Positions 11,199-43,072 of a stretch of DNA of 64,000 nt are shown here, in pieces; the first letter of the stretch is position 1, and each line of letters starts with the position of its first letter. The position numbers and the translations under genes were made by a program. The DNA comes from a virus: the IMG/VR virus record IMGVR_UViG_3300045988_174698; one strand, 5' to 3'. A model generated the notes under the pieces. It saw only the letters and a program-made list of their open reading frames with translations, did not search any database and was not told the DNA's origin.

Positions 11199-11200
11199 TT

Positions 11201-18608: not shown

Positions 18609-18609
18609 A

Positions 18610-19152
18610 CTATAGTTCTAATGCCTTATTATAGCAGTACACAGCCAGTTCCTTCTGGGTTAACTTATTATAATCAGCAAATTCAGCCCCATGGTCCTGT
18701 AAAAGCTTTGCAATATACTGTAGTTCGTGTTTTTTTAGTTTGCTAAATTGAGTGGCCGAGAATTCTGCGACCTTCTTATCAAGAGCAATTAATTTGAGGA
18801 ATACTTTTCCAAATGGTTTATTATTAAATTTATTAATATATACCTTTTGGTCAATATTATCCTCTACTGGGATAGCTTTAGGTTCAGGGTTAGGAACAAC
18901 CTCGTCATATGGGATAATCATAAATTCAGGTACCCATATGCCTATAGATAGAAAATATGGAATATCTGGGTCATTCTTATCTACATCCTCAATAACAGCA
19001 ACATTACCAAAATAGGGAAAATCAGAAAATAAGACATATTTCATGTCTTTGTTACAATAAACACCTTCTAAGTCAGGTGCTTCCTTGAGTAGATTATCCT
19101 TAAGTAAACAATCAAGATTTTTAATGATAACTTTGTCTCCTTGTTCAAACAT
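18610..19152 (-). CDS. hypothetical protein
   Basis: 180-aa ORF. Confidence 0.3.
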   Translation of the reverse strand: MFEQGDKVIIKNLDCLLKDNLLKEAPDLEGVYCNKDMKYVLFSDFPYFGNVAVIEDVDKNDPDIPYFLSIGIWVPEFMIIPYDEVVPNPEPKAIPVEDNIDQKVYINKFNNKPFGKVFLKLIALDKKVAEFSATQFSKLKKHELQYIAKLLQDHGAEFADYNKLTQKELAVYCYNKALEL

Positions 19153-19166
19153 AACTATTTTTATTT

Positions 19167-20243
19167 TTATTTGAAAAATGATAAATATTCTAATGGACTA
19201 ACAATTCTATATTTAGTCTTTCTAAACTCTAAAAGGTCAAAAGAATCTGAATAACTCATCATTGACCTTAAGTAGTCAACGAAATTTTCACACCAATCTT
19301 GTAACTTATACAAAACTGGAACTGTGGTTTCAATACCCTCAGCAGTTTTGAGTTTTTGGTTTCCTATTTCTATCTGTGCTTTTTTAGTAGACATACCATA
19401 GTATTTACGTCTGAGTCCTAGATTTGGATCTGTAACAGGTAGTAACTCTCCACAGGCTTCTTGAGATTGTGCAAAGAGTTTTCCAACCATTACATAATCA
19501 GCTCCAAGAGCTAGTGCTTTAATAATCTTATCATAATTATCAAATCCTCCGTCCGCAATAATAAATGGAACACTTTTGTATGGATGAGTTATTGAGTTAC
19601 AACCCAAGTAAAAACCAGAGTCACCCGCTATATTAACTACTTTTGTTTCTTCAATACATTTTTCTATAGCCCGCTTTTTATCAACAACTTCCTTAATTAA
19701 GGAAGCCATTGCATAGTGTATTCCACCATTAGCAGAAGTAGTACATACAGAACCTCCCCCTACACCTATCCGTACAAAATCAATTCCTGCTAGTGAATAA
19801 TCAGCATAAGTATCAGGGTTAGCAATATTGCCCGCCATTAATGACAATCGACCTCCAAATATAGACTTTGCTTGTGAGCATAAATCAATTAACTTTAACA
19901 TGTGGCCATTAGCAATATCAACACACACATAACGAATATCATTGGTGGTATCATATATATTTTCAAAATCTGTAATAAATCTTTCAAACTCAGATAAGCC
20001 AAGTGCAACAAACGTACTTGTAGACAACTCCCATCGTTTATCATAATCTACTCCTCTTGGAATAATTGTATTGATCTTATTTCTAAGAAAAACTTCATAA
20101 TTATTCTCATTAATAACAGAATTCATAGGAGCAGTAAATAACGGCAGCATACCATCAAAGTTATATGGATTACAGTCTGCACGATGTTCTATTCTACTGG
20201 TTCTAGCTGGTACTAAACAAATATCATTTAACCCATATGTCAT
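19167..20243 (-). CDS. GMP reductase / IMP dehydrogenase family protein (GuaC-like, no CBS domains)
   Basis: RIGVGGGSVCTTSANGG matches the IMPDH/GMPR catalytic Cys loop G(I/V)GxGSxCTT. IIADGGFDNYDKIIKALALGADYVMVGKLFAQSQEACGE matches GuaC SDGGC...GADFVMLGGMLAGHEESGG. Length of 358 aa. Confidence 0.7.
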   Translation of the reverse strand: MTYGLNDICLVPARTSRIEHRADCNPYNFDGMLPLFTAPMNSVINENNYEVFLRNKINTIIPRGVDYDKRWELSTSTFVALGLSEFERFITDFENIYDTTNDIRYVCVDIANGHMLKLIDLCSQAKSIFGGRLSLMAGNIANPDTYADYSLAGIDFVRIGVGGGSVCTTSANGGIHYAMASLIKEVVDKKRAIEKCIEETKVVNIAGDSGFYLGCNSITHPYKSVPFIIADGGFDNYDKIIKALALGADYVMVGKLFAQSQEACGELLPVTDPNLGLRRKYYGMSTKKAQIEIGNQKLKTAEGIETTVPVLYKLQDWCENFVDYLRSMMSYSDSFDLLEFRKTKYRIVSPLEYLSFFK

Positions 20244-20416
20244 TTTTAATCTCTCTTAATTAGTTTATTTTTCTGTTCCTCAGTATCCCTAAATTTTTTT
20301 ATTTTTCTTTTCTTATTTAGACGAGCAATCTCTTCCTCGTACCTATTATATTTATCCAATTGATTACCTCGAATAAATTTACCCATGATAAAAAACAGAA
20401 TTTCAATTTTGATTTA

Positions 20417-21199
20417 CTATTGAATCTCTAAAGTACCTGGTTCCAGTCCAAGTTCTTTCTCGACTTCTGCGATTGTTTTCTTTACAACCTTATTCTTTAC
20501 TTTTGGCCAAGCAACATCCATTTTTGTGTAATCACTAAGTTTAAAACAGTGTGGTGTTGGAACAAAAATCTTCTTAACTTGGTAGAAACTCCCATTTTTA
20601 GGGGAATTAAAGCATCCACTTAAATAACCCTTAATTTCTCCTTTATTGTTAACATAAACAATAGCTTTAGAAGAAATAATAAATCCAAAATACTCTTGAT
20701 CTTTAACTATTAACTGTACTATTCGCCCAGGTAAAAACTCAGACTTAAAATCATTATTAAGATTAGAATCTACCTTATTATCCTCAACCTTATTTTTTTC
20801 TTTACCTAGAATCTTTTCAAACTGGTCTATAATAGATATGTCATTTGATTTTAATTCAGGTGATTCAAGTAATTTTAATAGATTCTTTTCTGATTTTAAA
20901 ATAATATCACTATATAGAGCAAGTTTATTCTCTTCTATATCATTAATACCTAACTCTTTAAGGATAGTGTTGTCATCATCTGAACAGAAGATATCACTAT
21001 CTCCAGTAAGGTAATGAATATTCTGATTATATGTAACAACATAATAAGATCTTTTATCTGTATCAATTAAGATCTTATAAGGGTGTCCTGAAAGTAATAA
21101 AGATATACTTACCTTAGGATAGTTTAATGTATATCCGTATCTACTTAAGATAAACAAAATGGTATTTAAACTGTTACCATTATATAATAAATAACGCAT
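20417..21199 (-). CDS. hypothetical protein
   Basis: 260-aa ORF. Confidence 0.3.
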   Translation of the reverse strand: MRYLLYNGNSLNTILFILSRYGYTLNYPKVSISLLLSGHPYKILIDTDKRSYYVVTYNQNIHYLTGDSDIFCSDDDNTILKELGINDIEENKLALYSDIILKSEKNLLKLLESPELKSNDISIIDQFEKILGKEKNKVEDNKVDSNLNNDFKSEFLPGRIVQLIVKDQEYFGFIISSKAIVYVNNKGEIKGYLSGCFNSPKNGSFYQVKKIFVPTPHCFKLSDYTKMDVAWPKVKNKVVKKTIAEVEKELGLEPGTLEIQ

Positions 21200-21252
21200 A
21201 ATTTGATTTTTTTGTTCTTTTTAGTTAAAAAACAGTAACAAGTGAAGGCTCA

Positions 21253-22185
21253 CTATTCTTTTACTTCTATAATTTTATATACAGAATTTTGAGTATGAAA
21301 ATGATTTTTATCTACGATTTTAGTTACAGGTGAGGTTGAGAAGCGAAATCCAAGACAAGCTCGAAACCCTACAGTTATAGGTAGACTTAAATATCCTTGA
21401 GTAAGGTACCCTTTATTGATTCCATTTGGATGATGACCTGGCTTATAATTACAAGTATCAGTATCTTCTAACTTTTCAATCTGAACTTTAGTTTGTGCAG
21501 GATAACTACACACCTCATAATATAATTCACGTACACTCCTCAAAGTTTCCTCATGGTGATCATCTGATTCAGGTATTGATCCTTCACAATCACATTTCTT
21601 TAATAGTAGTAATGCTTCGAAGTCAATACACTCTAGATTATTAGCTAACCTTAGAATAGCCGACTTGATATCTCTTTGTTTTAAAATATAAAGAGGTTGC
21701 ATGTGACACCTTACCAAAGAAAGAATAGCTCTTTTGTACTGAGGTTTAATATCAGAAATATATGTATCTAAAATATGTTCAGCAATTGGAACTCCTTTAA
21801 TTGCATGGTCCTTACAGTGGTAAAGTCCATCTTCTCCCTTTTTTGTAGTAACTGGTTTACCTATATCATGTAATAGAGCAGCAAAGATTAGAATATTTCG
21901 ATAGTCCATGTCTTGAAAAAGTACTTCATTACTGTTTTCAATATGCTTCAACATACATTTTGTAACCATACAAGTATGGGTGAAAGCGTCTCCCTCTTTA
22001 TGCCAAAGTATATTCTGAGGAGTTTCTGACAACGCTTTAAATTCAGGAATTTTTAAAAGTTCATCCCAAAAGACAATATTAGTTTTTGGATCATAAATCA
22101 TATTATATAATAAGATTATAAGAGATAATAGTAGTAACAAATAAAATAGCTGAAGATTTTGCAAAATGTATAAAAGTTGAATCAT
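21253..22185 (-). CDS. HD-domain phosphohydrolase
   Basis: IFAALLHDIGKPVTT is the HD motif; downstream His and Asp residues are present. The N-terminus is a hydrophobic segment. Confidence 0.55.
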   Translation of the reverse strand: MIQLLYILQNLQLFYLLLLLSLIILLYNMIYDPKTNIVFWDELLKIPEFKALSETPQNILWHKEGDAFTHTCMVTKCMLKHIENSNEVLFQDMDYRNILIFAALLHDIGKPVTTKKGEDGLYHCKDHAIKGVPIAEHILDTYISDIKPQYKRAILSLVRCHMQPLYILKQRDIKSAILRLANNLECIDFEALLLLKKCDCEGSIPESDDHHEETLRSVRELYYEVCSYPAQTKVQIEKLEDTDTCNYKPGHHPNGINKGYLTQGYLSLPITVGFRACLGFRFSTSPVTKIVDKNHFHTQNSVYKIIEVKE

Positions 22186-22582
22186 AATCCGACATTATTA
22201 GAGATCCTATAGTAATTGCAAATAAAAGGGCAATTGACACTATAAAAATATCTCTATACACTTTGTATGTTTTGTTATTAGATACTACCCACCCTTTAAG
22301 TTTATATGTTAATATAACACCAGGTTTGTTATGGTATATATGGTAATCTTCTGGAGTAGCCTCAAAACTAAGTATTTTATTAGTTTTTATATCTTTTGCA
22401 ATAAGATACATCTTACCATTAGTTTTATAGCCTCCAGATATCTTTTCTCCTCCTATAATCTCACATTGATATGGATTAGTATTTACATAGTTACTAAATT
22501 CAGAGTAATGTAGATTCAAACTTATAAGTATAACTACTATAGAAGGAACCCAATAAGCTAAAATTTTAGAAGGTATATCCAT
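22103..22582 (-). CDS. hypothetical membrane protein
   Basis: 159-aa ORF with two hydrophobic segments. Confidence 0.25.
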   Translation of the reverse strand: MDIPSKILAYWVPSIVVILISLNLHYSEFSNYVNTNPYQCEIIGGEKISGGYKTNGKMYLIAKDIKTNKILSFEATPEDYHIYHNKPGVILTYKLKGWVVSNNKTYKVYRDIFIVSIALLFAITIGSLIMSDYDSTFIHFAKSSAILFVTTIISYNLII

Positions 22583-22583
22583 T

Positions 22584-23006
22584 TTATATCCATGTCTTTA
22601 AAGCTTCCAAAAAAGCTGATTCTAAAGCTTCTTCATATGTATTATAATCTACTCCACTTGCATCTATACTATGAGGAGGTCTTACAATTTTCTTAGAAGG
22701 ATCTATCTGAATATCAACGATTTTATATGTCCAATATCCATGAATAGTGGGAACTATTATAATATGTATCTTATGAATATCTCTTAACCATTTTTGAAGT
22801 TTAGATTGAGTTGGAGCTAAATAATAATTATCTGTAGGATCATAAAACTTACAATTCCAAAGCACTCCTTTTTCATCATAACAAGGGCTACAATTTACAT
22901 ATCCTAATTTTGGAAATAGTTTAGATATTCTATTTCCATCCATATAATGTTTTTCCTTTGCAAGTTTAGCAGTATCAAAAGTAATATGTGATTCCATTAT
23001 TCCCAA
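22584..23006 (-). CDS. hypothetical protein, family A (paralog of 40687..41055)
   Basis: Shares N-terminus M..HxxFDTAKLAKEKHY and APTQSKLQKWLRDIHKIHIII...EEALESAFLEAL with 40687..41055. Confidence 0.4.
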   Translation of the reverse strand: MGIMESHITFDTAKLAKEKHYMDGNRISKLFPKLGYVNCSPCYDEKGVLWNCKFYDPTDNYYLAPTQSKLQKWLRDIHKIHIIIVPTIHGYWTYKIVDIQIDPSKKIVRPPHSIDASGVDYNTYEEALESAFLEALKTWI

Positions 23007-23342
23007 GGTAAAATTTTCTGAGTTATTCTTTTATAGTTATTTAATATTCCTAAGATGTTTGCTCGACCTACAGGATTTGCAGATTGACTTGCAAACTGTG
23101 GAAGGACATATCCTTCATCTATACATTTATCTACAATATACTTGGCTATATCGTATCCAGATTTTTCCTCTCCTAAATCATGATCGAGACAAATTGCATA
23201 AGGTCATTCTTTTTCAAGGAAGTCAATAGCTTCTTGATAAGACTGAGCCCATACAACTTTACAATTTCTGCCAATTGGACTAAAATTCATCCAATCATCT
23301 TCCATTGGATTACGAGCATCATCTATCCAAAAAAGTGTTTTC
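22999..23342 (-). CDS. CheY-like receiver-domain protein (stand-alone)
   Basis: Hand translation MKTLFWIDDARNP...VVWAQSYQEAIDFLEKEWPYAICLDHDLGEEKSGYDIAKYI has the acidic pocket (DD, and D in ICLDHD) and spacing of a REC domain. One TGA. Confidence 0.35.
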
Positions 23343-23346
23343 ATAA

Positions 23347-23592
23347 TCATCTAATTCTTAAATGAGAAAGTAAATTAAAAACTATTAATATAATACAAGC
23401 CATAGTTGGAATAAAGTTTAAAGGAGTCCAAATGAGTATTATAAAGACAAAGCTACTAATATATTTATCCTCAGTATAGTATAAATACATATCTCCTAGA
23501 GTAGTTCCTTCTTTAGATTTTATCCTCCAATAAACGTAGAGAATAATATGATTAATAATTATACATACAAACCAGCAATATACAAATTCCAT
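23347..23592 (-). CDS. hypothetical membrane protein
   Basis: 81-aa hydrophobic ORF. Confidence 0.25.
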   Translation of the reverse strand: MEFVYCWFVCIIINHIILYVYWRIKSKEGTTLGDMYLYYTEDKYISSFVFIILIWTPLNFIPTMACIILIVFNLLSHLRIR

Positions 23593-23642
23593 AATTATAT
23601 TTTATTTAAATGAAATTTTCACTACCTAATTATTTATAAAAG

Positions 23643-23715
23643 TATCCCCACCTTGATTCGAACAAGGACCTTTCGGGTAGAAGCCGAAGATTCTCTCCAT
23701 TGAACTATGGGGACT
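23643..23715 (-). tRNA. tRNA-Arg (anticodon TCT)
   Basis: Hand-folded cloverleaf. Anticodon stem TTCGG/CCGAA, loop CTTCTAC. T-arm CCTTG-TTCGAAT-CAAGG. The acceptor stem pairs. Confidence 0.7.
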
Positions 23716-23755
23716 AAATAAATAGTTTATCTTACTATTTATATAAATATTATTA

Positions 23756-24085
23756 TTAAAGTTTTTGAATATTCTTCATAAAAACTCTAGTAATAATATC
23801 TATATTCATCTTACATTGCTCAAATATATCTATTTTATAAGAATCTTTCAGTGGGCTATCCTCTTTGTATGGCCAATGTGCAATTATAAATTCATATTCA
23901 CATCTAGCCCAGTATTGATACATTAATTTTCTCGTTACAAAATCCTTACACTGCTCAAAATTTTCTTTAGAAGGTTTATCTGCTTTATAAGCATCATTAT
24001 ACTTTCTAACTAGGTAAGGCATTATATCATAATAGGTTGGTTTATTTTTATTATATTCTAACCATAATACTTTGAATGGTATCAT
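23756..24085 (-). CDS. hypothetical protein
   Basis: 109-aa ORF. Confidence 0.25.
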   Translation of the reverse strand: MIPFKVLWLEYNKNKPTYYDIMPYLVRKYNDAYKADKPSKENFEQCKDFVTRKLMYQYWARCEYEFIIAHWPYKEDSPLKDSYKIDIFEQCKMNIDIITRVFMKNIQKL

Positions 24086-24096
24086 AAATTTTACTA

Positions 24097-24294
24097 TTAC
24101 AATTTTTCACCTAAATAATTAACTTCTATAACATTTAAATAGTTAACTTTAAATGGATAATCATCAACTATAGTATTATACTGTATACAAACACTTCTTT
24201 TATCTGTATCATGAAAGCAAGATACAACATGATTGAAATTGATATTACAGTTATATCCTTCACCTATAATATTAATAATATTTATCTTTTTCAT
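24097..24294 (-). CDS. hypothetical protein
   Basis: 65-aa ORF. Confidence 0.2.
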   Translation of the reverse strand: MKKINIINIIGEGYNCNINFNHVVSCFHDTDKRSVCIQYNTIVDDYPFKVNYLNVIEVNYLGEKL

Positions 24295-24334
24295 ATTGTA
24301 TTTATGTAAAAGCTCTTAGTAATAAAATCTTAAC

Positions 24335-24619
24335 TTAAAATTCTAAGTGGTTTTTATACTTGGCAGCACATCGAAGAAACCTATATGGATCCTTTATAAA
24401 AATGCGTTTTATATTAGGATTTAAATGGCTAAGATCTGGGTAAAAACAAAAAAAGCCAAACTTACCTGTATCATCTAAAACAACAACAGAGCTCTGGATT
24501 TTATTACCTTTCATGTATATCTGAACGTCGAAATATGGCCTATACCCAAGTTTAACTAGACTGCTGTAAAATAAAAGGAATTGTTTAGATAATATTATAG
24601 TATATGGATATTCTTTCAT
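24335..24619 (-). CDS. hypothetical protein
   Basis: 94-aa ORF. Confidence 0.25.
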   Translation of the reverse strand: MKEYPYTIILSKQFLLFYSSLVKLGYRPYFDVQIYMKGNKIQSSVVVLDDTGKFGFFCFYPDLSHLNPNIKRIFIKDPYRFLRCAAKYKNHLEF

Positions 24620-24802
24620 TATAGTAGTGAATTAATTATTAAGATAGCTTTTTTACTGTCATAACGACCCTTGTAATCAGATTTAGGTATAATATTCAAT
24701 ACCTTATTGACAATATTCTCACCACTAGTAGCATATAATGCTCCACTTGGATGATAAAAATCATGTCGTAAATCTACAACAATTAATGTACGCTTCATAT
24801 AG

Positions 24803-25120
24803 TTAAATTAAGCATAATAAAATTTGAATAAAGTGTAGACTTTGATCAATATAATATGAAGTAAAATCCTTCATATACTTTTTATAAAGTCCTCTACACT
24901 TCCAGTAATCAATAGCATAATGTCCAACTAGTAACATTATTAATTTCCAAATTGCAGCTAATCCCAAAAAGTGTAATGCAATATAAATACCTAACGCCCA
25001 AATTGCACAATGTACAAACAAGACATAATTATTTTCACATTTATACTTCTTACAAAACTCATCTTGCAACGGATAGTCTAAAACTAAATTTAGAAAGTAA
25101 AGTATAATAAAATTTATCAT
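24803..25120 (-). CDS. hypothetical membrane protein
   Basis: 105-aa polytopic hydrophobic ORF. Confidence 0.25.
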   Translation of the reverse strand: MINFIILYFLNLVLDYPLQDEFCKKYKCENNYVLFVHCAIWALGIYIALHFLGLAAIWKLIMLLVGHYAIDYWKCRGLYKKYMKDFTSYYIDQSLHFIQILLCLI

Positions 25121-25527
25121 TATCTAATCTTTATTTTTGAGAACAAACTTCCAATATCTAAGAAGATTTGTATTATCAATACAATAGTATTTACTACAGG
25201 AACCCATATTAAAAGGAAGATCCAATCATTATCTTGATCTACATAAAAAGAATAAAGATCACCTATTGTGCTTCCACACTTGTCTTCTTCAATCCAATCA
25301 AAATACAGGGAAACGTGTAAATAAACAACTCCTATTAGATAAATACCTAAAATAATTAAAAATGTATACATATTAATCCAGTTTTTCCCAGCATTCTTGA
25401 TCAAAATTCCAATGTCTAATATCACAAATATTAAACTCGAAACATAATCCAAGAATGCCGATATTAAAACAAAAGCCTGCATGATCCCCTTTATTATTAT
25501 AACTAATATGGAAATCAAGCAAGCCAA
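25120..25527 (-). CDS. hypothetical membrane protein
   Basis: 135-aa polytopic hydrophobic ORF. ORF 25373..25699 overlaps it in another frame. Confidence 0.25.
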   Translation of the reverse strand: MACLISILVIIIKGIMQAFVLISAFLDYVSSLIFVILDIGILIKNAGKNWINMYTFLIILGIYLIGVVYLHVSLYFDWIEEDKCGSTIGDLYSFYVDQDNDWIFLLIWVPVVNTIVLIIQIFLDIGSLFSKIKIR

Positions 25528-25926
25528 ATGTATTGATGTTTATAAACAAATAATAACAAATACCAAATAGTTGAATATCAAAGTCAAAAAATTTTGATAA
25601 CTTAAAGATTTTAAATCTAATAGACATTTCTAATGATTTAAACTCTCCTATAGGGTGCACAAACACCCACCACAAAAAATCTAATTTACAAAGCTTCATA
25701 TTTTTCTTAAATTAGAGTAATAAGCGGTTATAGACTATACTTCTAATTTGGGTTAATAACTAATATTATTGTAATACTTTATATCTTCAATATAAGTTTT
25801 CTGTGTATCTCCAGTAGGCCCTATCATAATATTAGGTTTTATTGTTCCGCATGATATATTAAGTATTACTAAGACTATTATAACTATTTTTACTATTGTT
25901 TTCATCTTTATGTTATTAATGTTTAG

Positions 25927-25999
25927 AGTAGGTAACAGGATTCGAACCTGTGATATAGCTTTTGCAGAGCTGGGCCTTAACCAACTTGGCGATACCTAC
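25927..25999 (-). tRNA. tRNA-Cys (anticodon GCA), one C:A mismatch in the anticodon stem
   Basis: Acceptor GTAGGTA/TACCTAC. T-arm ACAGG-TTCGAAT-CCTGT. Anticodon loop CTGCAAA. Confidence 0.55.
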
Positions 26000-26004
26000 A
26001 TGTG

Positions 26005-26095
26005 CGGTAAGGGTGGGATTCCAACCCACGCAGCGATTTCTATACGCTCTAATGCATTTCAAGTGCATCCTCTTAAAGCTCTTGAGTACCTTACC
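26005..26095 (-). tRNA. tRNA-Ser (anticodon TGA), class II with long variable arm
   Basis: Acceptor GGTAAGG/CCTTACC. Anticodon stem ATGCA/TGCAT, loop CTTGAAA. About 20-nt variable arm. T-arm GTGGG-TTGGAAT-CCCAC. Length 91 nt. Confidence 0.7.
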
Positions 26096-26133
26096 AAATT
26101 TATCTATCTATAAACTTTCTAGTAAGTTATTTG

Positions 26134-26206
26134 CTGGACCGATAGGATTCGAACCCACGTTACCCAAATTAACAGTTTGGTGCTTAAACCACTCAGCCAC
26201 AGTCCA
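26134..26206 (-). tRNA. tRNA-Asn (anticodon GTT)
   Basis: Anticodon stem CCAAA/TTTGG, loop CTGTTAA. T-loop TTCGAAT. The acceptor stem has one G-U pair. Confidence 0.6.
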
Positions 26207-26358
26207 GTACATTTTATATATTTATTACAGATAACTCTGCAAAAGTATTTGCAGAAATATTATAAATTAATTAGTCGAGAATGATAGTAATGCTCTATCC
26301 CCTAGAAATCCCAAATTTCTCGTGCTACTTCCACACCCCATTCTCGATAAACTATCCT

Positions 26359-26592
26359 TTATTCAAGGATAGCGTTTAATTTTGCAAGAACACCTTCGTT
26401 TTTCTTACGAATGTTTTCAAGAGCTTCTTTTTCAGCTTGAGCTGCTTTGATTTCCTCGTCTCTTGCTGCAATTTCTAATTCTGCAGAAGCATTTACTTCT
26501 TTAAGACCATCAATTGCAGTTTTGAAAGCATTTAAAACATTGTCTACTTTCTTAGACAGATCTACAGATGTTTTACTTTTTGAATTAAACAT
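26359..26592 (-). CDS. hypothetical coiled-coil protein
   Basis: 77-aa ORF, Ala/Glu/Lys-rich (EIAARDEEIKAAQAEKEALE). Sits inside the tRNA cluster. Confidence 0.3.
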   Translation of the reverse strand: MFNSKSKTSVDLSKKVDNVLNAFKTAIDGLKEVNASAELEIAARDEEIKAAQAEKEALENIRKKNEGVLAKLNAILE

Positions 26593-26649
26593 GTTTAATA
26601 GTTTTTTAAATTAATGCTGTGAGGAGATTTTTGGGACCCCCAATAATAG

Positions 26650-26721
26650 TGAACCATATGAGACTCGAACCCCTCTATTTCCTTGCAAAGGAAATGTGCT
26701 CGCCTTTACACTACATGGCCC
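26650..26721 (-). tRNA. tRNA-Ala (anticodon TGC) with a G3:U70 pair
   Basis: Acceptor GGGCCAT pairs with ATGGTTC, which gives the Ala identity element G3:U70. Anticodon stem TTTCC/GGAAA, loop TTTGCAA. T-arm GGGGTTCGAGTCTC. Confidence 0.65.
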
Positions 26722-26728
26722 AAAATAC

Positions 26729-26914
26729 TTAAAGTTTAATACGAAATTGTCTTATTTTATTACATATTTTACAACGCTGTATATAAACTTTTTCAACTTT
26801 AACTGGGCGACTTTGATAGTCATTTTCAAACACCTTTTTTAATTTTTCTTCAACTGTCTCCCAATCATGTACATGAAATTTCAATTCAAACCATTTCTTT
26901 ATAAGTTCTAACAT
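26729..26914 (-). CDS. hypothetical zinc-ribbon protein
   Basis: 61-aa ORF with a C-terminal CKICNKI. Confidence 0.25.
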   Translation of the reverse strand: MLELIKKWFELKFHVHDWETVEEKLKKVFENDYQSRPVKVEKVYIQRCKICNKIRQFRIKL

Positions 26915-26941
26915 ATTATAAAGTTTTTAATAAAATTTTAG

Positions 26942-27023
26942 AGCCTCCTGTCGGACTCGAACCGACGCGTTCAAATGAAGACGGATTACAAAACCGTTGC
27001 AGTCGCCGCTGTGCCAAGGAGGC
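26942..27023 (-). tRNA. tRNA of uncertain identity (possibly Thr-TGT) with atypical 14-nt extra region
   Basis: Acceptor GCCTCCT/AGGAGGC is perfect. T-arm GTCGG-TTCGAGT-CCGAC is perfect. Best anticodon fold is ACGGT/TCCGT with loop TTTGTAA (TGT). The 82-nt length and long variable region are unusual for tRNA-Thr. Confidence 0.4.
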
Positions 27024-27139
27024 TTATAAACACTATCGTAGTTTGCACGTCTGATTTTTATTGCCACAGAAACTCCATACAAATGATCAATTTATATGTT
27101 AAGAGTTGTTACGCCGCTAATGTCAAATTTAGAAATAAC

Positions 27140-28018
27140 TTATAATGACATAAATTGGTTATAGTTATCCTTGTATCCTATAGAAGTATTCACAAGAAGC
27201 TCGCCATGCATGCTTCTACCAGGCATTGGCACCATAAAGTCATTTCCATATATGTTAGTTAAAACACTTAAATATACTTCTGGAGCAGGAAACATTCCTC
27301 ACTCAAATTTAAGGTAAACCTTATTGTTATAGTCTCTAGCGTTTCTAAGACTTTGTATCTTATTTGGAAATGTAAGATTACCAAATGACTCTGTGGAGAG
27401 TACATTATATCGTTGTCGTAGCTCTTGATATTTTTCTCTAAGATATAAAAGTCTAGATGTGTTTTCCTTAGAAGAATCATAACATTGTATTCTTGTTTTT
27501 ACAGCCAGTGCTTCTAGTTTAATTAAGTGAAGCTGGTGCATAAACTTTTGTCTCTCAACTAGATCATCTGGAACATTATCAAAAGGACATATATCTATAA
27601 AGATCCCTTGGTTAAAGGTAAAATGACCTTCTAAATCCTTTTTGTGAATACATGTTGTGTCACTTCTTCTTAACTTCGTACAGCAATAAAAGGTACTGTC
27701 TGTTCAGTCATTTTGAACAAAATATGGATAATTCAACTCTTTAACTGCACACTCTAAAAATCTATCATAGTCTGTTCTAGGCATAGCAATATCAATATCA
27801 TCGTCCCATGGAATAAATCCACCATGTCTGACAGCACCAAGTAATGTTCCTCCATCTAAATAGTGCTTCAAATGATATTTATCACAGATATTTTTAAACT
27901 GTCATAGCAAATCTAGCTCAACTCCTCAAAGTTCTTTTCTTTCTTTAGACACCAAGAATCCATTTTTTACTTCTGCTTCAAAAAAGTTATCTGGTAATTT
28001 AATATTTAAGTTTACCAT
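27140..28018 (-). CDS. LicD-family phosphotransferase (LicD/FKTN/FKRP nucleotidyltransferase-fold)
   Basis: Reconstructed through at least five TGAs (frame checked). [40 protein letters not shown] is the LicD signature including the DxD motif. The two standard-code ORFs 27268..27480 and 27299..27541 are fragments of it. Confidence 0.6.
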
Positions 28019-28679
28019 TAAATAAAAATTTAGCCAACTCTAAATCATCAGGACTTGTAATTTTAAAATTCATAAGTTCTCCCGAGATATATAAGCATTT
28101 ATTTCCATTATGCTCATATAAGTCAGGTAAAGTCTGATAATTATCTATATTTTTAATCTTTGTAATTATATTATAAAGGCTTCTAAGCATAAAAGTTTCA
28201 GGAGTCTGTAAGATAGCAATTGGCTCCGTTCTTACTCCAGGAACATGTAACGAACTAAGATCTTTTAAAGTGCTAACTGTTGGAATGTATGGAACAACAG
28301 CCGAATTATTAGAATCACAAGAAGACAAACATCTTGTAATTAAATTTGAAGTGAAAAAAGGTCTAACAGAATCATGAAACATAATTTTTTCAATAGAAGG
28401 ATAGTAAGTCATTATGTATTCAAGACCAGCAATTCTAGATCTTAAGCATGAGTACCCTCCTTCTATAATTTTGATATAAGAAAATGGAAAAAGCTTTCGA
28501 AGAATAGGAATATATTCAGGTAGAGTAACTATAACAATTATGTTAAACAGTCTTAACCTAACAAACTTTTCAACAGTCAAATATACTATAGGATGTCCAT
28601 TAATATCTATAAACTGCTTAGGAATATTCATTCCTACCCTAGTTCCTTTTCCAGCAGCATTAATAACTAAGGCATTCAT
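27999..28679 (-). CDS. IspD/TarI/LicC-like cytidylyltransferase (CDP-alcohol synthase family)
   Basis: N-terminus MNALVINAAGKGTRVGMNIPKQFIDINGHPI matches the MobA-like nucleotidyltransferase motif of IspD/TarI/LicC (AAGxGxRxG...PKQ). Its 3' end overlaps the LicD-like start by about 20 nt. Confidence 0.6.
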   Translation of the reverse strand: MNALVINAAGKGTRVGMNIPKQFIDINGHPIVYLTVEKFVRLRLFNIIVIVTLPEYIPILRKLFPFSYIKIIEGGYSCLRSRIAGLEYIMTYYPSIEKIMFHDSVRPFFTSNLITRCLSSCDSNNSAVVPYIPTVSTLKDLSSLHVPGVRTEPIAILQTPETFMLRSLYNIITKIKNIDNYQTLPDLYEHNGNKCLYISGELMNFKITSPDDLELAKFLFNGKLKY

Positions 28680-28723
28680 ACACTTAATCTTATACTCTTT
28701 TTCTTTTAATACTAGTTAATACA

Positions 28724-28975
28724 CTAAAATAAAGATTCATTTCTATTCCTAAAGTAAAGGATAGTACATAGTACTATTACCACAAACCAGATAAAAAGAA
28801 ATAGTAATATTAGACAGTTAATTAGTACTGTTGCCATAGTATTATTTATTATATGTGAGAAATATTTATTTAATTTTAATAGTTGCTCGTTAAAGATTCG
28901 AACTTTAACTTTCACGTTCAAAGCGTGACGTGCACAAACCAAGTACACCAACGAGCAGAAGCAAATCCGCAGCAA
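28724..28975 (-). CDS. hypothetical membrane protein
   Basis: 83-aa hydrophobic ORF. Confidence 0.25.
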   Translation of the reverse strand: MLRICFCSLVYLVCARHALNVKVKVRIFNEQLLKLNKYFSHIINNTMATVLINCLILLFLFIWFVVIVLCTILYFRNRNESLF

Positions 28976-29085
28976 GAATCCACCACAAATATAAAGATAA
29001 AAGTCAATATAACCAAATATTTGTACACTTATTTCTATAATTTGTACAAATTTTTGAGATTACTATTCAGTATAATAACTAACAC

Positions 29086-29445
29086 TTACTTTTGCTTCTC
29101 TTTTAAATAAGTATAGATAATAATGATCATTAAAGTGATAACAATCATCACGAAGAAATATGTTAATACTGTAACAAAGAAGTTTATCCCTAATATGTTA
29201 TTAACAAAGTGTAATAAATAGCACACTAGAACACAATACAACAAAATTCTATGATAAATACAAAATTTGAATGTAAGAGATAAAACAATGAGACCTATTA
29301 GTACTACCATAACTGTTACCAAATCTACACAACTAATAATTACTGTAGAAATTGTATAGTAACGTAGTAGTATTTTAAATAATATGTTTAGTGCTAGTAA
29401 GAAAGGTGCAAAACGAATGAATATTAAACTAAGTTTCTTTAACAT
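29086..29445 (-). CDS. hypothetical polytopic membrane protein
   Basis: 119-aa ORF with about four hydrophobic helices. Confidence 0.3.
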   Translation of the reverse strand: MLKKLSLIFIRFAPFLLALNILFKILLRYYTISTVIISCVDLVTVMVVLIGLIVLSLTFKFCIYHRILLYCVLVCYLLHFVNNILGINFFVTVLTYFFVMIVITLMIIIIYTYLKEKQK

Positions 29446-29563
29446 TCTATAAAATAAAATATCAAATTAATAATTAATATAATAATCACCCAGCTAATTA
29501 TTGTTAATAATCTCGATAAACACCCTAATCTAGTAAGAATATCATGTGATGTAAGTTTCATTA

Positions 29564-29824
29564 TTAAAATTCAGGTTCAAACATACTAGACGCCCATGAC
29601 CAATAGCCACCATCTTCTTCTATAGAATACAAATAGCCATCATCAGGAAGTCTACCGTCTTGCATTTTATGCCAATATTTAGCTTTACTAATAGTGCATA
29701 CTCTTCCTCCATATTCTGTAAGCATATTTTCTGCAAACCAGTACGAATAATCGAGATCCTTACATCCTGGATCATACTTTTCCTTTATTAAAACATTATC
29801 TCCAATTTTGTATAATGATTCCAT
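29564..29824 (-). CDS. hypothetical protein
   Basis: 86-aa ORF rich in Trp and Tyr. Confidence 0.3.
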   Translation of the reverse strand: MESLYKIGDNVLIKEKYDPGCKDLDYSYWFAENMLTEYGGRVCTISKAKYWHKMQDGRLPDDGYLYSIEEDGGYWSWASSMFEPEF

Positions 29825-29842
29825 AAGTTAAAAAGATTTTTG

Positions 29843-29875
29843 TGTGGCTGATGAGAATTGAACTCATGTCCATTC
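29843..29875 (-). other. isolated tRNA 3'-end-like fragment (T-arm plus acceptor 3' strand)
   Basis: The minus strand reads ATGAG-TTCAATT-CTCAT followed by CAGCCAC. No upstream D-arm or anticodon arm, and the flank is AT-rich. Confidence 0.25.
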
Positions 29876-30580
29876 AACTATTAATAATAATTTTATTTAC
29901 ATGCTAGGTTATTTTATTCTCCTATTCCGAAAAATAACAAAACGTATCAGATAGTTTTTATCTTATCTCCTACAACTTATCTGAAATAACTCGGTTCTAT
30001 AATAGTAGTTAGTAATGATTAACTTACATCATCTGCATTAATCTATACAGAAAATCTTTGTCTATTATTTCTCCAGACTTGGATAGCTTAAGCTGCAAAA
30101 GCTACTTGAGCACGCATAGGAGTTGCAAGAGGCATAACCTTGTTAGCCATCTTACGTACAGTGTTCTTAGCGTTTATTTTTTGGTCCAGTTGTTAAAGAA
30201 GTTATACCAGCTCCTGCATGAATTGTTATCAACTATCTTGAATGTCAAAAACCTGGCAGGCCCAAAGACAGGGCAGTTTATACTTATACCCTAGAAGTGG
30301 TCCATAATAGCTAAAGTGTTTAATGCTCTAATTATATAGCAGCGACTAGTATACTGTTATACTTTTCTTGTAACTTCAAGAACTATTACTAAAACTTCAA
30401 TGTGAAGTTCCTAAAAGCCACTTGAGTATTTTTTGGGTTCACTCAAGAATACCGTGTTTTATTGTCGGGATCAAACAACCAAACTACCACCTTTCTATAT
30501 ACAAAGGCAAACTCATACTATCTGGCGTAACCCGTTACTATTATTTATATACCGCTAAGTAACCTAATGCGGTTTACTTT

Positions 30581-31171
30581 TTATCCTTTAAAGTATAATA
30601 ATGTTGGATTATTCTTATGCACATCAATATTCGGATATCGTTTTGCAAAAGTTGACATATCAAAAGGAGTTGTAATTAAATGAAAACCATTTTTAGTAGG
30701 AATCAAAGCCTTAAACTTTGAACCAATAGGTTGACATTCTCGTTCAATAAACAGTAAGATATTATTTACCGCACGATTATCTGTAGGTCCATCAATATCA
30801 ACAACCCATGTTTTATCGTCTTTATTACATGTTGATCCACAAGCATGATCATAACAACGATAAACTTCTTCCATCTGATCATATCGTATTCGTTCAGCAA
30901 GATTCTCTAAACAAACTAACGCTACATCTTTATAGCTTCGCTTGTTTAAATGAATATAAGCACGTGCTTTAAATATAGAACACATTTGCTTAATTTCCTT
31001 TTTCTTGCCTTCGAAATATTCAAGAGAACGTATACAATAGGAACGAACTAAACGGTTATTTACTCCTATATCGGGATTATCCTTTGATCTTTGTATAATC
31101 TGAAGATAATAAAAATCATCTTTAGATTCAAATTTCAAAAGACTTTTAATTAAGTCAAAATTATCTACCAT
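30581..31171 (-). CDS. hypothetical protein
   Basis: 196-aa ORF; no secure family match by eye. Confidence 0.3.
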   Translation of the reverse strand: MVDNFDLIKSLLKFESKDDFYYLQIIQRSKDNPDIGVNNRLVRSYCIRSLEYFEGKKKEIKQMCSIFKARAYIHLNKRSYKDVALVCLENLAERIRYDQMEEVYRCYDHACGSTCNKDDKTWVVDIDGPTDNRAVNNILLFIERECQPIGSKFKALIPTKNGFHLITTPFDMSTFAKRYPNIDVHKNNPTLLYFKG

Positions 31172-31250
31172 TTTCTTTAATAAGTAAATTTAATTTGCAT
31201 ATACAAAATATTTTTATTATATTTGATTTAATTATTAAATCAAATAAATC

Positions 31251-31628
31251 ATGAATATATTAATAAAAACATGTACGGTTTGTAAAGAATCAAAAGCCTT
31301 AGATGAGTTTCCAAAGCATCCACAGCATAAAGATGGATACAATAGTGTTTGTAAAAAATGTATGCAAAAAAGCAATAAAAAATGTAGATCAAATAAAAAG
31401 ATTCATTTTATAAAGAAAATAGGAGGAGAATGTACAAATTGTAAAATAAAATTGACTGAAAATAATTGACCAATATTTGATTTTCATCATATAGATCCTT
31501 CCCAAAAAGAAGTTTCTTGATCAACATTAAGAAATTGAAGTAATGATAAAATTGAAAAAGAATTAAACAAATGCACTTTACTATGTGCTAATTGTCATAG
31601 ACTTTTACACGCAAAGACTAAAGATTAA
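31251..31628 (+). CDS. HNH endonuclease (zinc-finger plus HNH), free-standing
   Basis: ORF 31251..31469 continues through four TGAs to a TAA at 31626-31628 (frame checked). CTVCKES...CKKC Zn knuckle, then FDFHHIDP...LLCANCHRLLH HNH motif. It is the only plus-strand gene inside the minus-strand block. Confidence 0.65.
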
Positions 31629-31681
31629 CTTTAGTCTTTTATTTTTATCTATTACTATTATTCTAGTCAATAAAAAATAGA

Positions 31682-31725
31682 GCCTACACCTCCGATCAAG
31701 GAGATGTAGGCAATGTTTATCGTCT
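31682..31725. terminator. hairpin terminator between convergent genes
   Basis: GCCTACACCTCC-gatcaa-GGAGATGTAGGC (12-bp stem, one mismatch) followed by a T-rich run. It sits between the 3' ends of the plus-strand HNH and the minus-strand small ORF. Confidence 0.45.
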
Positions 31726-31839
31726 TTTAAGAGCTTCATAATTTTTATATGGGCCCCTCCTCTTAGTAAAGGTTTTTCCTTTACCGTGTTAGAGGAAACT
31801 ATAGTGTTCTACTATAGAGACTACACCTTTGATTTAGCA

Positions 31840-32017
31840 GGTAGGCTTTTCTGCTTTGTAATTAGGTAAGTATAGAGCATTATGCCTTACTCTACGGTAA
31901 ACAGTTCTATACGAAAGTTCTCCTGTCTTTTTATCAAAAACAGGGTTGCCTTCTTCATCTACTTTAACTTCTTTAAAGGGCATTGTAATAGCCTTCATTT
32001 TAGGATGTGCCATCTGT
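31840..32017 (-). CDS. small hypothetical protein (59 aa)
   Basis: MAHPKMKAITMPFKEVKVDEEGNPVFDKKTGELSYRTVYRRVRHNALYLPNYKAEKPTC. Below the track's length cut-off. Local GC is higher than the flanks. Confidence 0.2.
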
Positions 32018-32022
32018 GTTAT

Positions 32023-33216
32023 TTAATTATTTTTACCTTGTTTTTTAGCAATATCAAGGAGCATATTCAGTCCTACAGCATCCATAGGATTAGCAGATGC
32101 TCCTTCTTTACCTCCAATAATCATTACTTCAGGAACCCAACGAACATTTGAGTTTGCTAATGCCTGAGCTACACCAATTGTGGTTTCTTTATCAATTGTT
32201 GCTCTTTGCAATGGGTCCAATCCAGCAAGTACTTTAGCTCGTGCTGCTGCAGCTTCTGCCATGCCCTGAGCTTCAATACGTTTTGCATCTTCCTTTGCCT
32301 TTAAAGCAGAAAGACGAGCTACTTCATATTCCTGTTCAGCCTTAGTAACCTCTACAGCCTTAATTTTCTCCTGTTCCCACTTAGCCTTCATAGCAAGTGC
32401 CTTACCCTCCTCTTCAGCACGAATTGCCTCTTGAGCAGCAGCAGCTGACTTCGCACGACTAGTTTGAATAAGCATATTTGCTTCCTGTTGCTGAGCAATC
32501 TGCCTATTTACTTTATCAGAATATGCAATCTTTGATACAGCTACCTGACCAATCTCTAGTCCATAATAAGCAAATGGGGAGGATTCACTACGCTTGTAAC
32601 CTCCTGCTGCTAATGAGTCAGGAATTAGTGTAGCTACATTAATAACTTTCTTTTCTCCAGTAATTGCATCAAGTACTTCGCTACGCTTGATTGCAGTTTT
32701 GTAGACACCATTATTTAACTGATCAGTAATATATTCAATCAAGTCATTCTTCTTCTCTGCATACGATTCAAAAGCAGACATCAGAGGACCTGAAGCATAA
32801 ATTACCTTAGTAACAGTCGGACGAACAAGATCATTCATTAGACGATCCATACCATTATAATCAGTCTGAATACGAGCGAGGTATTTAGGGTCAGTAGGAA
32901 GTTTTACACGAAGTGATCCATAAATCATACCATCTGAAGCATCATTGAAGATTACAGGAATAGGTTTTCCCTGCTGATCGCCAGCCTCAGAGTCAGATCC
33001 GAACCACAACTGTTGAGTTTTATAGTAAGTAGTGGTTTTGCCCCACCACTGCCAGTGAAAACCAGGACTAGTCCAGTATTCCATGTTACCAGTAAACGGA
33101 TACTGATTGACTACAATCGTCTCATTCTTTACATCTTCCCCGATTTTACCCAGAGAAACAACACAGAAAATAGCAAATACTACTACAAGAGCAGCAACAA
33201 TTTTTTTGAAATTCAT
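32023..33216 (-). CDS. SPFH/band-7 (stomatin/prohibitin/HflKC-like) membrane protein
   Basis: N-terminal membrane anchor, then an SPFH core and a long Ala/Glu/Lys-rich coiled coil (AVEVTKAEQEYEVARLSALKAKEDAKRIEAQGMAEAAAARAK). Confidence 0.7.
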   Translation of the reverse strand: MNFKKIVAALVVVFAIFCVVSLGKIGEDVKNETIVVNQYPFTGNMEYWTSPGFHWQWWGKTTTYYKTQQLWFGSDSEAGDQQGKPIPVIFNDASDGMIYGSLRVKLPTDPKYLARIQTDYNGMDRLMNDLVRPTVTKVIYASGPLMSAFESYAEKKNDLIEYITDQLNNGVYKTAIKRSEVLDAITGEKKVINVATLIPDSLAAGGYKRSESSPFAYYGLEIGQVAVSKIAYSDKVNRQIAQQQEANMLIQTSRAKSAAAAQEAIRAEEEGKALAMKAKWEQEKIKAVEVTKAEQEYEVARLSALKAKEDAKRIEAQGMAEAAAARAKVLAGLDPLQRATIDKETTIGVAQALANSNVRWVPEVMIIGGKEGASANPMDAVGLNMLLDIAKKQGKNN

Positions 33217-33394
33217 CTTTAGATTTTTAAATTACACAATTACCTTTTAAAAAAATAATAAAATGGAATTATTACCTTCCATGTAATTTTACGATTAGTA
33301 ATTTTACATGTATCTAATAACTGAAGAGTCATTAGAGTATAGTAAAGAATAAAGGAAATACTAACTAATAGTATAACAAAACGATAAAACCACA

Positions 33395-33676
33395 TTACTT
33401 TAAATTACTTTTAATGTTATCTCTTGTATCACAGTAGATTTTAATTTCTTGGGGGAAAACATGAATGATAGTAGTATCTTTCATTTCCTTAAATGTAGAA
33501 TTAATAATCCTCTCTAGGGAGTCTATCTGTAAAACTAGAGATTTTATATTCTCTTGGTTCTGTCTAAAAAAGGTTTCACTGCGTGTATTATCTATACAAA
33601 AAAATGCAAAACTTATTAGGAAAGAAGTTCCAAGAAGAAGTAAGACAACTCCAATTTTTATAGATTTATCTGTCAT
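33395..33676 (-). CDS. small membrane protein, possible SPFH partner (NfeD-like position)
   Basis: 93-aa ORF with one transmembrane helix, immediately 5' of the SPFH gene. Confidence 0.25.
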   Translation of the reverse strand: MTDKSIKIGVVLLLLGTSFLISFAFFCIDNTRSETFFRQNQENIKSLVLQIDSLERIINSTFKEMKDTTIIHVFPQEIKIYCDTRDNIKSNLK

Positions 33677-34328
33677 AACTAAGAATTAGCATATTAACTA
33701 TTTAAGTTAAGATAAGGATTAGATTTTTATTACAAAAATATATACCAGCTGTGTAACACAATTTTTGCCTGATTGGTACTAGCATTTACCATACACTTCC
33801 TTAACCAATATCAGAAACTATATGTACAGGTATATAAACAATAAATAGCTTCTGTAAGTGTACAACCTATTGCACAGATACTTTCACTATCTTATTATTG
33901 TGATTGGATAGGATTCAAACCTAATGTTTCCCTATTGTACAACAAGGCGAGTTTCATCACATTCTCCTCTCAATCAACCCCCAATCTTATTGAAAACAAT
34001 AAGACGCCCTTGTCTTGTCTGGGAGACTTTCATAAGGGTACTTTTTAAATAAAAAGAGGTAATCCCATAAGTATTATTCTACCTCCGCCTCATCTATAAA
34101 ATCATAGATTATCAGCAGCCTCTGCCAAGGCATCCCTGTTTTTCTATGAACTGGCAGATTCATAAATTATCAGGATAAACAGATTATTAAATTTCTTTAA
34201 TATTTCCGTTTTTATATTTCTTCTGAGTAGCAATCTTTATTATTCCATCCTCGTTTACTAGTTTCTCTTTTCATTCTTAGCTATAACTTTATTAGTATAT
34301 TACTAATATAATGCAGAAAGTAGTGTCA

Positions 34329-34622
34329 TTACTTCTCTAATCCAAATTCATTAATAAAATCAATATTCCTCTTACATAAACTTTTTACAGTAGCAACTTT
34401 ATGAGTTACATTTCCCGCGGTAACCTCAGAAGCTATCTCTGCAATATGCGTAAGATTATTGTATGCCATGATCTCACCATATTGTTTCTTTATTTTATCT
34501 GTATAATTAAATGCTAATGCTTTAATTAGAGCAACATTATGAGAGTAATTTTCAGTAGTTACTCTATCACATTTATTATTTATACGTGTAAACCATAATA
34601 TAACATCCTCTTTTGTTATCAT
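34329..34622 (-). CDS. hypothetical protein
   Basis: 97-aa ORF. Confidence 0.25.
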   Translation of the reverse strand: MITKEDVILWFTRINNKCDRVTTENYSHNVALIKALAFNYTDKIKKQYGEIMAYNNLTHIAEIASEVTAGNVTHKVATVKSLCKRNIDFINEFGLEK

Positions 34623-34648
34623 AGTGTTATGTGCTTATTGTTAGGTTT

Positions 34649-34906
34649 CTAAGAATGAATTTGTTTCCCTTTATATATAGACCAGCCTTTATCTTCTGCT
34701 ATTCTAACACAACGAGACTCCATTTGGCTATGTATTGTTTGAATGTTTTGATTTAAGGAGTACGTTATAGTATCTTCTTTACCATTAATAAGAATTTTGC
34801 CATTTTCATAGTCAAAAAGAATCTTATCTTTAAAGATTTCTATAACTAACAAATAAAGGGTTTCCGCATAGCAAGTTGTATAAATAGGATGAATAGCAAA
34901 GTACAT
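34649..34906 (-). CDS. hypothetical protein
   Basis: 85-aa ORF. Confidence 0.25.
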   Translation of the reverse strand: MYFAIHPIYTTCYAETLYLLVIEIFKDKILFDYENGKILINGKEDTITYSLNQNIQTIHSQMESRCVRIAEDKGWSIYKGKQIHS

Positions 34907-42789: not shown

Positions 42790-42925
42790 ACAAACTTATC
42801 TTTAACTTTAAAATGAAGGAGTGGGTGACTGTCACTCTAACAGTTACTAATACTAGTATAATGGCCTAGCAGCTCAGTGCCACAGTCTTCCGACACATTA
42901 GTAATGTATTTTTACTTCATCTTGC

Positions 42926-43028: not shown

Positions 43029-43072
43029 TAAAACAAGTTGCAAATATAGCACTTAATTATTGAATATGCAAA

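Follow-up and report, generated by a model that had tools for sequence, protein, structure and literature searches.

A 64,000-nucleotide stretch of viral DNA (IMG/VR record IMGVR_UViG_3300045988_174698), hereafter called the window, carries on its minus strand two overlapping genes encoding an IspD-like cytidylyltransferase (CT) and a phosphotransferase of the LicD family (Table 1). Together they may act as a cytidine diphosphate (CDP)-alcohol synthase and an alcohol-phosphate transferase decorating a glycoconjugate of the host envelope, and we give this function a slightly better than even chance. The pair is a horizontally mobile two-gene cassette of gut phages, which occupies a variable hotspot and is accessory in this lineage. 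Insertion of ispD and licD into some “Flandersviridae” gut phages was described by Benler et al. in 2021 (PMC8008677), who knew of no earlier report from phages, and the pair of the window is a further member of this kind found in a different, TGA-recoded lineage. The literature search revealed no experimental follow-up of phage ispD+licD pairs. New here are the breadth of cassette distribution, the phage-specific clade of CTs, the missing reductase, the location in a hotspot and the contrast in codon composition between the two genes.

A preliminary description of this DNA, made from its letters alone, had reported both genes, their overlap and their main motifs, all of which were confirmed. 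The start of licD lies 20 nt upstream of the CT gene end, and exactly the same overlap is repeated in L001, a relative of 174 kb, as well as in L002 and L003, which points to co-transcription and possibly to translational coupling. The start codon of licD is supported by the N-terminal pattern MV.L..LP, which is kept in LicD homologues.

The CT protein, which begins with MNALVINAAGKGTRVGMNIPKQF, matches the Pfam profile IspD (PF01128) with 96 bits at a cut-off of 27, so that residues 4–220 are aligned with profile positions 3–219 of 221. It possesses the P-loop AAGKGTR (R14), PKQ (K21), HDSVRP (D103, R106), QTPE (T159) and FKIT (K206), and the motifs AAGKGTR, PKQF, HDSVRP, QTPE and FKIT line up with those of E. 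coli IspD and four TarI structures. Its best sequence matches in PDB are the TarI enzymes 4jis, 3f1c, 6xhp and 2vsh, interleaved with T. maritima IspD (1vpa); the matches to 4jis, 3f1c, 6xhp and 1vpa are full length, with E values from 1e-22 to 1e-18. A model predicted from a shallow alignment had a mean predicted local distance difference test (pLDDT) score of only 61.5 and matched TarI and IspD chains alike (probability 1.0, template modelling score about 0.65), leaving them unseparated.

In a neighbour-joining tree, where isoprenoid IspD was represented by two references (E. coli and T. maritima), the LicD-linked CTs of phages fell into one clade (bootstrap 62). It was set apart from these two IspDs, from the TarI clade (bootstrap 91), from Bcs1-like fusions of a CT with a reductase and from bacterial CTs linked to LicD, which made up two clades. 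With moderate support, phage CTs therefore appear to form a clade of their own, which is neither isoprenoid IspD nor TarI, and assignment of the protein to the TarI subfamily is not borne out by the tree or by its NCBIfam score. The preliminary description had allowed for robust grouping with bona fide isoprenoid IspD; since the protein stands apart from the E. coli and Thermotoga enzymes, such grouping was not observed. When motifs were compared with those of IspD from E. coli and T. maritima, of four TarI enzymes, of Bcs1-like fusions and of CTs linked to LicD in bacteria, the phage clade was found to retain the conserved ones, to have the T-D-(D/E/A) motif replaced and to have the Arg after the GG motif shifted. 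Within this alignment the clade-specific changes were matched to no substrate.

For LicD, translated under genetic code 4, the match to Pfam PF04991 amounts to 136.3 bits (cut-off 22.6) and places residues 45–258 on profile positions 1–227 of 227, so that the identities proposed earlier for both products are backed by full-length profile matches. Its conserved residues are W31, G57, R64, H65, those of PWDDDID (D72, D74, D76) and NQGIFID (D142), D147 and H271, and those invariant across 34 homologues (G57, R64, H65, W71, D72, D74, D76 and D142) are all present. Thus the core motifs DGG..G..RH, PWDDD.D and NQGIF.D are complete in their acidic and His residues, and the loss of LicD catalytic residues upon correct translation, considered beforehand as a possible outcome, did not take place. 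An identical 292-aa protein with Trp at the TGA positions exists in a public protein collection (P0001). The AlphaFold2 model of LicD reached a pLDDT of 91.5, and the only relative of solved fold found for it by Foldseek was the catalytic domain of FKRP (probability 1.0, 234–244 columns), including its complex with CDP-ribitol (6kam); at the sequence level the match to FKRP spans the GG..PWD.D.D motif. No hydrophobic segment was detected (maximum 19-aa hydropathy 0.69), and the protein is probably soluble. Both genes are under purifying selection, with dN/dS values of 0.06–0.09 for licD and, in comparison with L010 and L013, of about 0.2 for the CT gene. In PHROGs the two proteins gave only weak, unannotated matches and are, therefore, poorly represented among catalogued phage families.

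TGA as a tryptophan codon

Under the standard code licD is split into five pieces. It contains one TGG and four in-frame TGA codons (Table 1), fewer than the “five or more” counted originally. Reading of TGA as Trp follows from two positions. The column of codon 31 is an invariant W across 34 homologues, bacterial ones included, and each of the eight licD genes inspected from the recoded clade has TGA here (among them those of the window, L001, L009, L010, L013, L015 and L016); in the sister phages L010 and L013 TGA also encodes W71, the invariant catalytic Trp of PWDDDID. Coverage of the window by open reading frames (ORFs) is 57.5 kb under code 4 versus 38.5 kb under code 11.

The use of Trp codons is uneven. 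The CT gene has neither TGA nor TGG throughout this clade. Apart from licD, minus-strand genes at 13296..34906 have in total about 60 TGG versus 3 TGA, and licD is the lone TGA-rich gene in this block of approximately 20 kb. Rich in TGA are also the replication genes (315..12774) and the late-looking plus-strand genes for lysin- and tail-like proteins (51988..62522), one of which, encoding a lysin-like protein of 750 aa, has 11 TGA and no TGG. Code switching in the course of infection has been proposed for recoded gut phages, and the pattern seems to fit a phage that switches the code while infecting a standard-code host, not one living in a code-4 host. Stop-codon reassignment of this kind is reviewed in PMC11210395. 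A suppressor tRNA(UCA) was not found in the window by ARAGORN and Rfam with introns allowed; two long tRNA-like elements (Table 1), neither of which is called by ARAGORN at default settings, are not TCA suppressors either.

Distribution of the pair among gut phages

The two genes are neighbours in no fewer than five distinct groups of gut phages. At IMG/VR loci with LicD identity of at least 40% an IspD-like gene was found immediately upstream of licD in 32 of 32 distinct cases. These loci belong to several groups unrelated to one another, namely this lineage (LicD identity of 95–98% and 72%), contigs of 42–85 kb (47%), contigs of 16–78 kb (41–46%) and one contig of 345 kb. Near-identical loci are present in L001, which comes from the human gut, and in IMG/VR contigs, the longest of which measures 167.6 kb. 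CT and licD are also adjacent in MT121964, a GenBank phage of 75.5 kb. Surroundings of the pair vary: in L006 it has a reversed order and adjoins a Big_1 protein, in L007 it is likewise adjacent and reversed, in L008 a Peptidase_S74 tail-fibre protein of 1054 aa is encoded upstream of it, and in L089 it is placed beside PolA in the replication module. Receptor-modifying morons often adjoin tail-fibre genes.

Even within related genomes the cassette is optional. Among 34 related loci recovered through the neighbouring Band_7 gene it is present in six and absent from 28. At the cassette site of L186 (16564..19639), flanked as in the window by the tmRNA and the 119-aa gene on one side and by tRNA-Thr on the other, there are instead genes for a 709-aa protein without a Pfam match and a 140-aa cytidylyltransferase-like protein of PF01467, the TagD/CoaD-type family. 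In L177 (15120..16358) the 140-aa PF01467 gene is present again, the 709-aa gene is truncated, and the match to the window is confined to the upstream flank.

In bacteria the association is looser, as a match to the CT query was found within 8 kb of licD at 17 of 80 loci. Two of these matches, in L121 and L134, cover the N-terminal half only; these Bacteroidales metagenome-assembled genomes had been considered as hints at a prophage or a host and were rejected, since half-length matches probably belong to other nucleotidyltransferases. Separately, in L049 and L056, which are labelled as viral in IMG/VR, a LicD of 32–42% identity adjoins a Bcs1-like fusion of an IspD-type CT with a short-chain dehydrogenase/reductase (SDR). 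Judged by its genes, this arrangement represents a putatively “complete” CDP-polyol route of bacterial style, unlike the cassette, which has no reductase.

The closest published case is the Flandersviridae insertion, in which the same two families are adjacent, also in human-gut phages and also in some members only. Its LicD and CT homologues are 45–47% and 33–35% identical to those of the window and lie beside the PolA replication genes. The present lineage differs from it: its contigs measure about 167 kb, it decodes TGA as Trp, and it carries numerous tRNAs together with a tmRNA. The Flandersviridae genes were interpreted as serving isoprenoid synthesis and, separately, attachment of phosphocholine to teichoic acid (PMC8008677). 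Co-occurrence of the two genes and the tree of CTs speak, contrary to this, for one coupled pathway. Coupling of CDP-alcohol synthesis with phosphotransfer, as the preliminary description had proposed, is strongly supported by adjacency or overlap of the genes across phage groups and by the precedent of ISPD with FKTN and FKRP.

Proposed chemistry, its target and competing explanations

If both enzymes act as other members of their families, CT would join CTP with an alcohol phosphate supplied by the host into a CDP-alcohol, and LicD, as a soluble enzyme of the FKRP type, would move the alcohol-phosphate from the CDP donor to a hydroxyl of a glycoconjugate, most likely a glycan, leaving a phosphodiester and CMP. 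The likeliest acceptor would be an envelope glycan of the host under assembly at the cytoplasmic face of the membrane, such as capsule, lipopolysaccharide (LPS) or lipooligosaccharide, or general O-glycan precursors. Infected cells would then expose an altered surface and adsorb phages differently, and the plausible benefit may consist in receptor masking, in superinfection exclusion or in preventing progeny phages from binding again to cells already infected or to debris. A host glycan is suggested as the target by the patchy, moron-like distribution of the cassette and by its tail-fibre neighbours in some phages. Relatives of the window's helicase occur in phage contigs from human faeces and in phages of Flavobacterium, Cellulophaga and Bacteroides, which suggests a host from Bacteroidota, and surface glycans, especially phase-variable capsules, decide phage infection of gut Bacteroidota. 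Serotype-conversion morons (gtrABC, oac) are likewise small accessory cassettes, often located beside tail-fibre genes, that alter the receptor glycan; they transfer glucosyl or acetyl groups, encode membrane proteins and usually belong to temperate phages. Unlike them, the pair described here would add a phosphodiester-linked alcohol by means of two predicted soluble enzymes. If this is true, the cassette, exchanged among many unrelated phages, would represent a new way in which phages convert cell surfaces in the gut, and it would supply glycoengineering with CDP-alcohol enzymes that need no reductase.

Precedents exist for this scheme. TarL, which the preliminary description had paired with TarI as an equivalent of the phage genes, is a polymerase of the TagF type and no LicD protein, so that this parallel fails. 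The enterococcal polysaccharide antigen (EPA) of E. faecalis fits instead: there LicD-family transferases that act on an undecaprenyl-linked sugar are proposed to be supplied by a TarI homologue (PMC7188991). The logic of moving ribitol phosphate onto a lipid-linked sugar would be the same, and TarI enzymes are the best PDB matches of the phage CT; the differences from bacterial TarI/TarJ and Bcs1 loci are the lack of an SDR reductase or a CT-reductase fusion and the separate CT clade. Mammalian ISPD (CRPPA) makes CDP-ribitol for FKTN and FKRP with their LicD domains, and bacterial ISPD-LicD fusions are known (PMC4873967). Here again a CDP-polyol from an IspD-family CT is used by polyol-phosphate transferases, but FKRP is only about 13% identical to the phage protein, has an additional stem domain and is anchored in the Golgi, while phage LicD is predicted to be soluble. 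Decoration with phospho-alcohols is not foreign to Bacteroidota, as the O-glycan of P. gingivalis bears glycerol-phosphate (PMC8729774).

Several observations weigh against a host-glycan function of this kind. In NCBIfam CT falls below the cut-offs of both candidate models, scoring 122.4 bits for ispD (TIGR00453, cut-off 181.3), which is its top value, and 98.2 bits for ribitol-5-phosphate CT (NF001183, cut-off 166). Two metagenomic phage contigs have LicD without CT within the flanks examined. The Trp codons of licD resemble those of late genes and not those of its TGG-only neighbours; if decoding of TGA begins late, LicD is made late, which poorly fits early superinfection exclusion and agrees better with a late surface change or with modification of virions. 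The assignment of the host to Bacteroidota is tentative. No gene of the acceptor side (glycosyltransferase, flippase or ligase) was found among about 30 window proteins scanned. A reductase was sought by tblastn, the queries being S. aureus TarJ, two SDRs and the C-terminus of a Bcs1-like fusion; none appeared in the window, in phage loci of this LicD group totalling 1.84 Mb or anywhere in MT121964 (75.5 kb).

The missing reductase also bears on the nature of the alcohol. Bacterial LicD loci with a full-length IspD-like neighbour nearly always have an SDR or a fused reductase nearby, and in four IspD-like/LicD loci examined in detail it is directly adjacent. Consequently, sufficiency of the two enzymes, asserted in the preliminary description, is doubtful as far as ribitol is concerned. 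Without a reductase in the cassette the alcohol phosphate must come from the host, and ribitol-5-phosphate is a possible substrate only if the host makes it. Glycerol-3-phosphate, methylerythritol phosphate (MEP) and pentulose phosphate are universally available. Probably the alcohol phosphate is that of a polyol, such as ribitol-5-phosphate or glycerol-3-phosphate. Phosphocholine, listed earlier among the options, is unlikely for an IspD-type CT, as LicC sits in another nucleotidyltransferase family.

The main rival keeps the same chemistry and directs it to a phage component, such as a glycosylated protein of the tail fibre or the capsid, or a hydroxylated base of the DNA. It is favoured by the TGA content of licD, which resembles that of late genes and suggests co-expression with structural genes, by the tail-fibre-like genes abutting the pair in L006 and L008, by the lack of a membrane segment in LicD and by the window's cluster of amidoligase, glutamine amidotransferase and COOH-NH2 ligase genes, similar clusters being known from modification systems of phages; a distantly related Yersinia phage, YerA41, also carries an IspD-like gene. 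Yet all acceptors of the characterised LicD-family enzymes in PMC4873967 and PMC7188991 are cellular glycans, dispensability of the cassette would be unusual for a virion or DNA modification on which the genome depends, and in the L089 phage and Flandersviridae the pair resides in the replication module. We consider a phage target unlikely, though to be kept in mind. Transfer to a membrane glycolipid or another non-polysaccharide acceptor, with remodelling of the host membrane, is brought up by the only NCBIfam match of any strength obtained for LicD, the diacylglycerol cholinephosphotransferase Mf1 of Mycoplasma fermentans. Its 71 bits are, however, far below the cut-off of 225. Moreover, the nearest cellular LicD homologues, with identity of no more than about 40%, belong to gut and rumen Bacteroidales and Firmicutes, and at the four such loci examined there are also genes for Wzx-like flippases and glycosyltransferases, which marks them as polysaccharide loci. 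This makes the glycolipid variant highly unlikely.

The published reading of the Flandersviridae insertion (PMC8008677) implies two unrelated functions, with the IspD homologue raising MEP flux of the host and LicD separately adding phosphocholine to a cell-wall polymer. The ispD equivalog as the best NCBIfam score of CT and the existence of LicD-only phages are consistent with it, and the fold and conserved motifs are indeed shared with housekeeping IspD. On the other hand, the pair is adjacent and often overlapping in every phage group with LicD identity of at least 40%, the two LicD-only contigs excepted, and CT remains under the IspD cut-off and outside the E. coli/Thermotoga pair in the tree. 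Besides, neither ispF nor another MEP-pathway gene, nor any choline-route gene of the LicA/LicB/LicC type, was seen among the window proteins scanned. Separate functions are difficult to square with so strict a pairing and with the tree; we give them a very small chance, and the pair was probably mis-assigned. Finally, fragmentation of licD under the standard code could mean that its TGAs are true stops in decaying passenger genes. This explanation is effectively refuted by TGA at the invariant W31 in all clade relatives and, in L010 and L013, also at the catalytic W71, by the gain in ORF coverage under code 4, by the full-length Pfam match, by the high pLDDT of the model and by the low dN/dS; the conserved Trp positions and the dN/dS value likewise rule out licD as a pseudogene.

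Returning to decoration of the host envelope, one can imagine a more specific version of it, which we regard as quite doubtful. In this case the phage CT clade would activate not ribitol-5-phosphate but a ubiquitous host metabolite, for instance glycerol-3-phosphate, MEP or pentulose-5-phosphate, and LicD would add a phospho-alcohol not otherwise made by the host to the capsule, LPS or O-glycoproteins of Bacteroidota. Four TGAs in licD, combined with the absence of Trp codons from the CT gene, could gate the transfer to the TGA-decoding phase, so that cells or virions become marked only late.

Genomic surroundings of the cassette

Table 1. Positions of the cassette, its TGA codons and other features in the window
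Feature	Position	Strand	Remarks
CT gene, 226 aa, IspD/TarI family	27999..28679	-	Pfam IspD match
licD, LicD-family phosphotransferase, 292 aa under code 4	27140..28018	-	Pfam LicD match
Overlap of CT stop and licD start, 20 nt (ATGGTAAACTTAAATATTAA)	27999..28018	-	licD ATG inside CT gene
In-frame TGA, licD codon 31, Trp	27926..27928	-	Invariant W column
In-frame TGA, licD codon 39	27902..27904	-	TGG in L001, L015, L016
In-frame TGA, licD codon 105	27704..27706	-	W in several non-recoded phage homologues; TGG in L008, L087
In-frame TGA, licD codon 240	27299..27301	-	Window sequence
Cluster of amidoligase, class-II glutamine amidotransferase-like, COOH-NH2 ligase and Peptidase_C26 gamma-glutamyl hydrolase-like genes	13296..17226	-
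HD-domain protein	21253..22185	-	Adjoins several small membrane proteins
cREC_REC (cyclic-phosphate processing receiver) protein	22997..23350	-	Adjoins several small membrane proteins
37-aa single-pass ORF	28724..28837	-	No family match
83-aa ORF	28724..28975	-	Overlaps tRNA-Gln 28882..28957; 37-aa version credible instead
119-aa ORF, four hydrophobic peaks	29086..29445	-	No family match
tmRNA	29842..30263	-	Rfam, 52.3 bits vs gathering score 47
Long tRNA-like Rfam match, 129 nt	42661..42789	-	Intron-allowed ARAGORN: tRNA-Ile(aat), 41-nt insert
Long tRNA-like Rfam match, 105 nt	42925..43029	-	Intron-allowed ARAGORN: tRNA-Ala(ggc), 26-nt insert

The window has a GC content of about 30%. According to PHROGs and Pfam its proteins include a helicase, an exonuclease, a glucosaminidase/lysin and IMPDH/GMP-reductase-like, HD and Band_7 proteins. 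No integrase or other gene of lysogeny was recognised in the set of about 30 proteins scanned. Scanning of the window for sigma-70 promoters and terminators gave a background level of hits, and the fixed-spacing −33/−7 promoter pattern showed no excess over chance in it. The −7 motif of Bacteroidota, TAnnTTTG, was weakly enriched upstream of genes (19 versus 10 in the opposite-strand control). The amidoligase cluster suggests a phage pathway for modification of peptides or metabolites.

Two membrane proteins were initially described as following the cassette. On the coding strand they are located upstream, between the tmRNA and the CT gene, and lie outside the module; the longer, 83-aa version of one of them overlaps a tRNA gene (Table 1). 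As candidate flippases or parts of the module the 37-aa and 119-aa ORFs were rejected, since they have no Pfam match and are not conserved with the cassette beyond the closest relatives (L009–L014).

The window contains 12–14 tRNAs. What looks like a phage-encoded tmRNA is situated about 1.2 kb upstream of the cassette; ARAGORN did not call it at default settings, and relaxed settings gave an unusually long tag AKNTVRKMANKVMPLATPMRAQVAFAA.

In L001, the region 742..4711, which precedes the IspD/LicD pair by approximately 5 kb, encodes an Ion_trans channel and a complete ATP-binding cassette importer made up of a permease, an ATPase and a substrate-binding protein with NMT1/phosphonate-binding and OmpA domains; on the downstream side there are genes for NAMPT and isochorismatase. 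A megablast search of 20 kb against phage records produced a single 66-nt match, to crAss-like phages. This segment (39631..39696) is 97% identical to cr108_1 over 66 nt and 100% identical to cr111_1 over 36 nt; it corresponds to unannotated regions of these phages and lies in the window inside a 1.4-kb gap free of ORFs, and it is not a tRNA.

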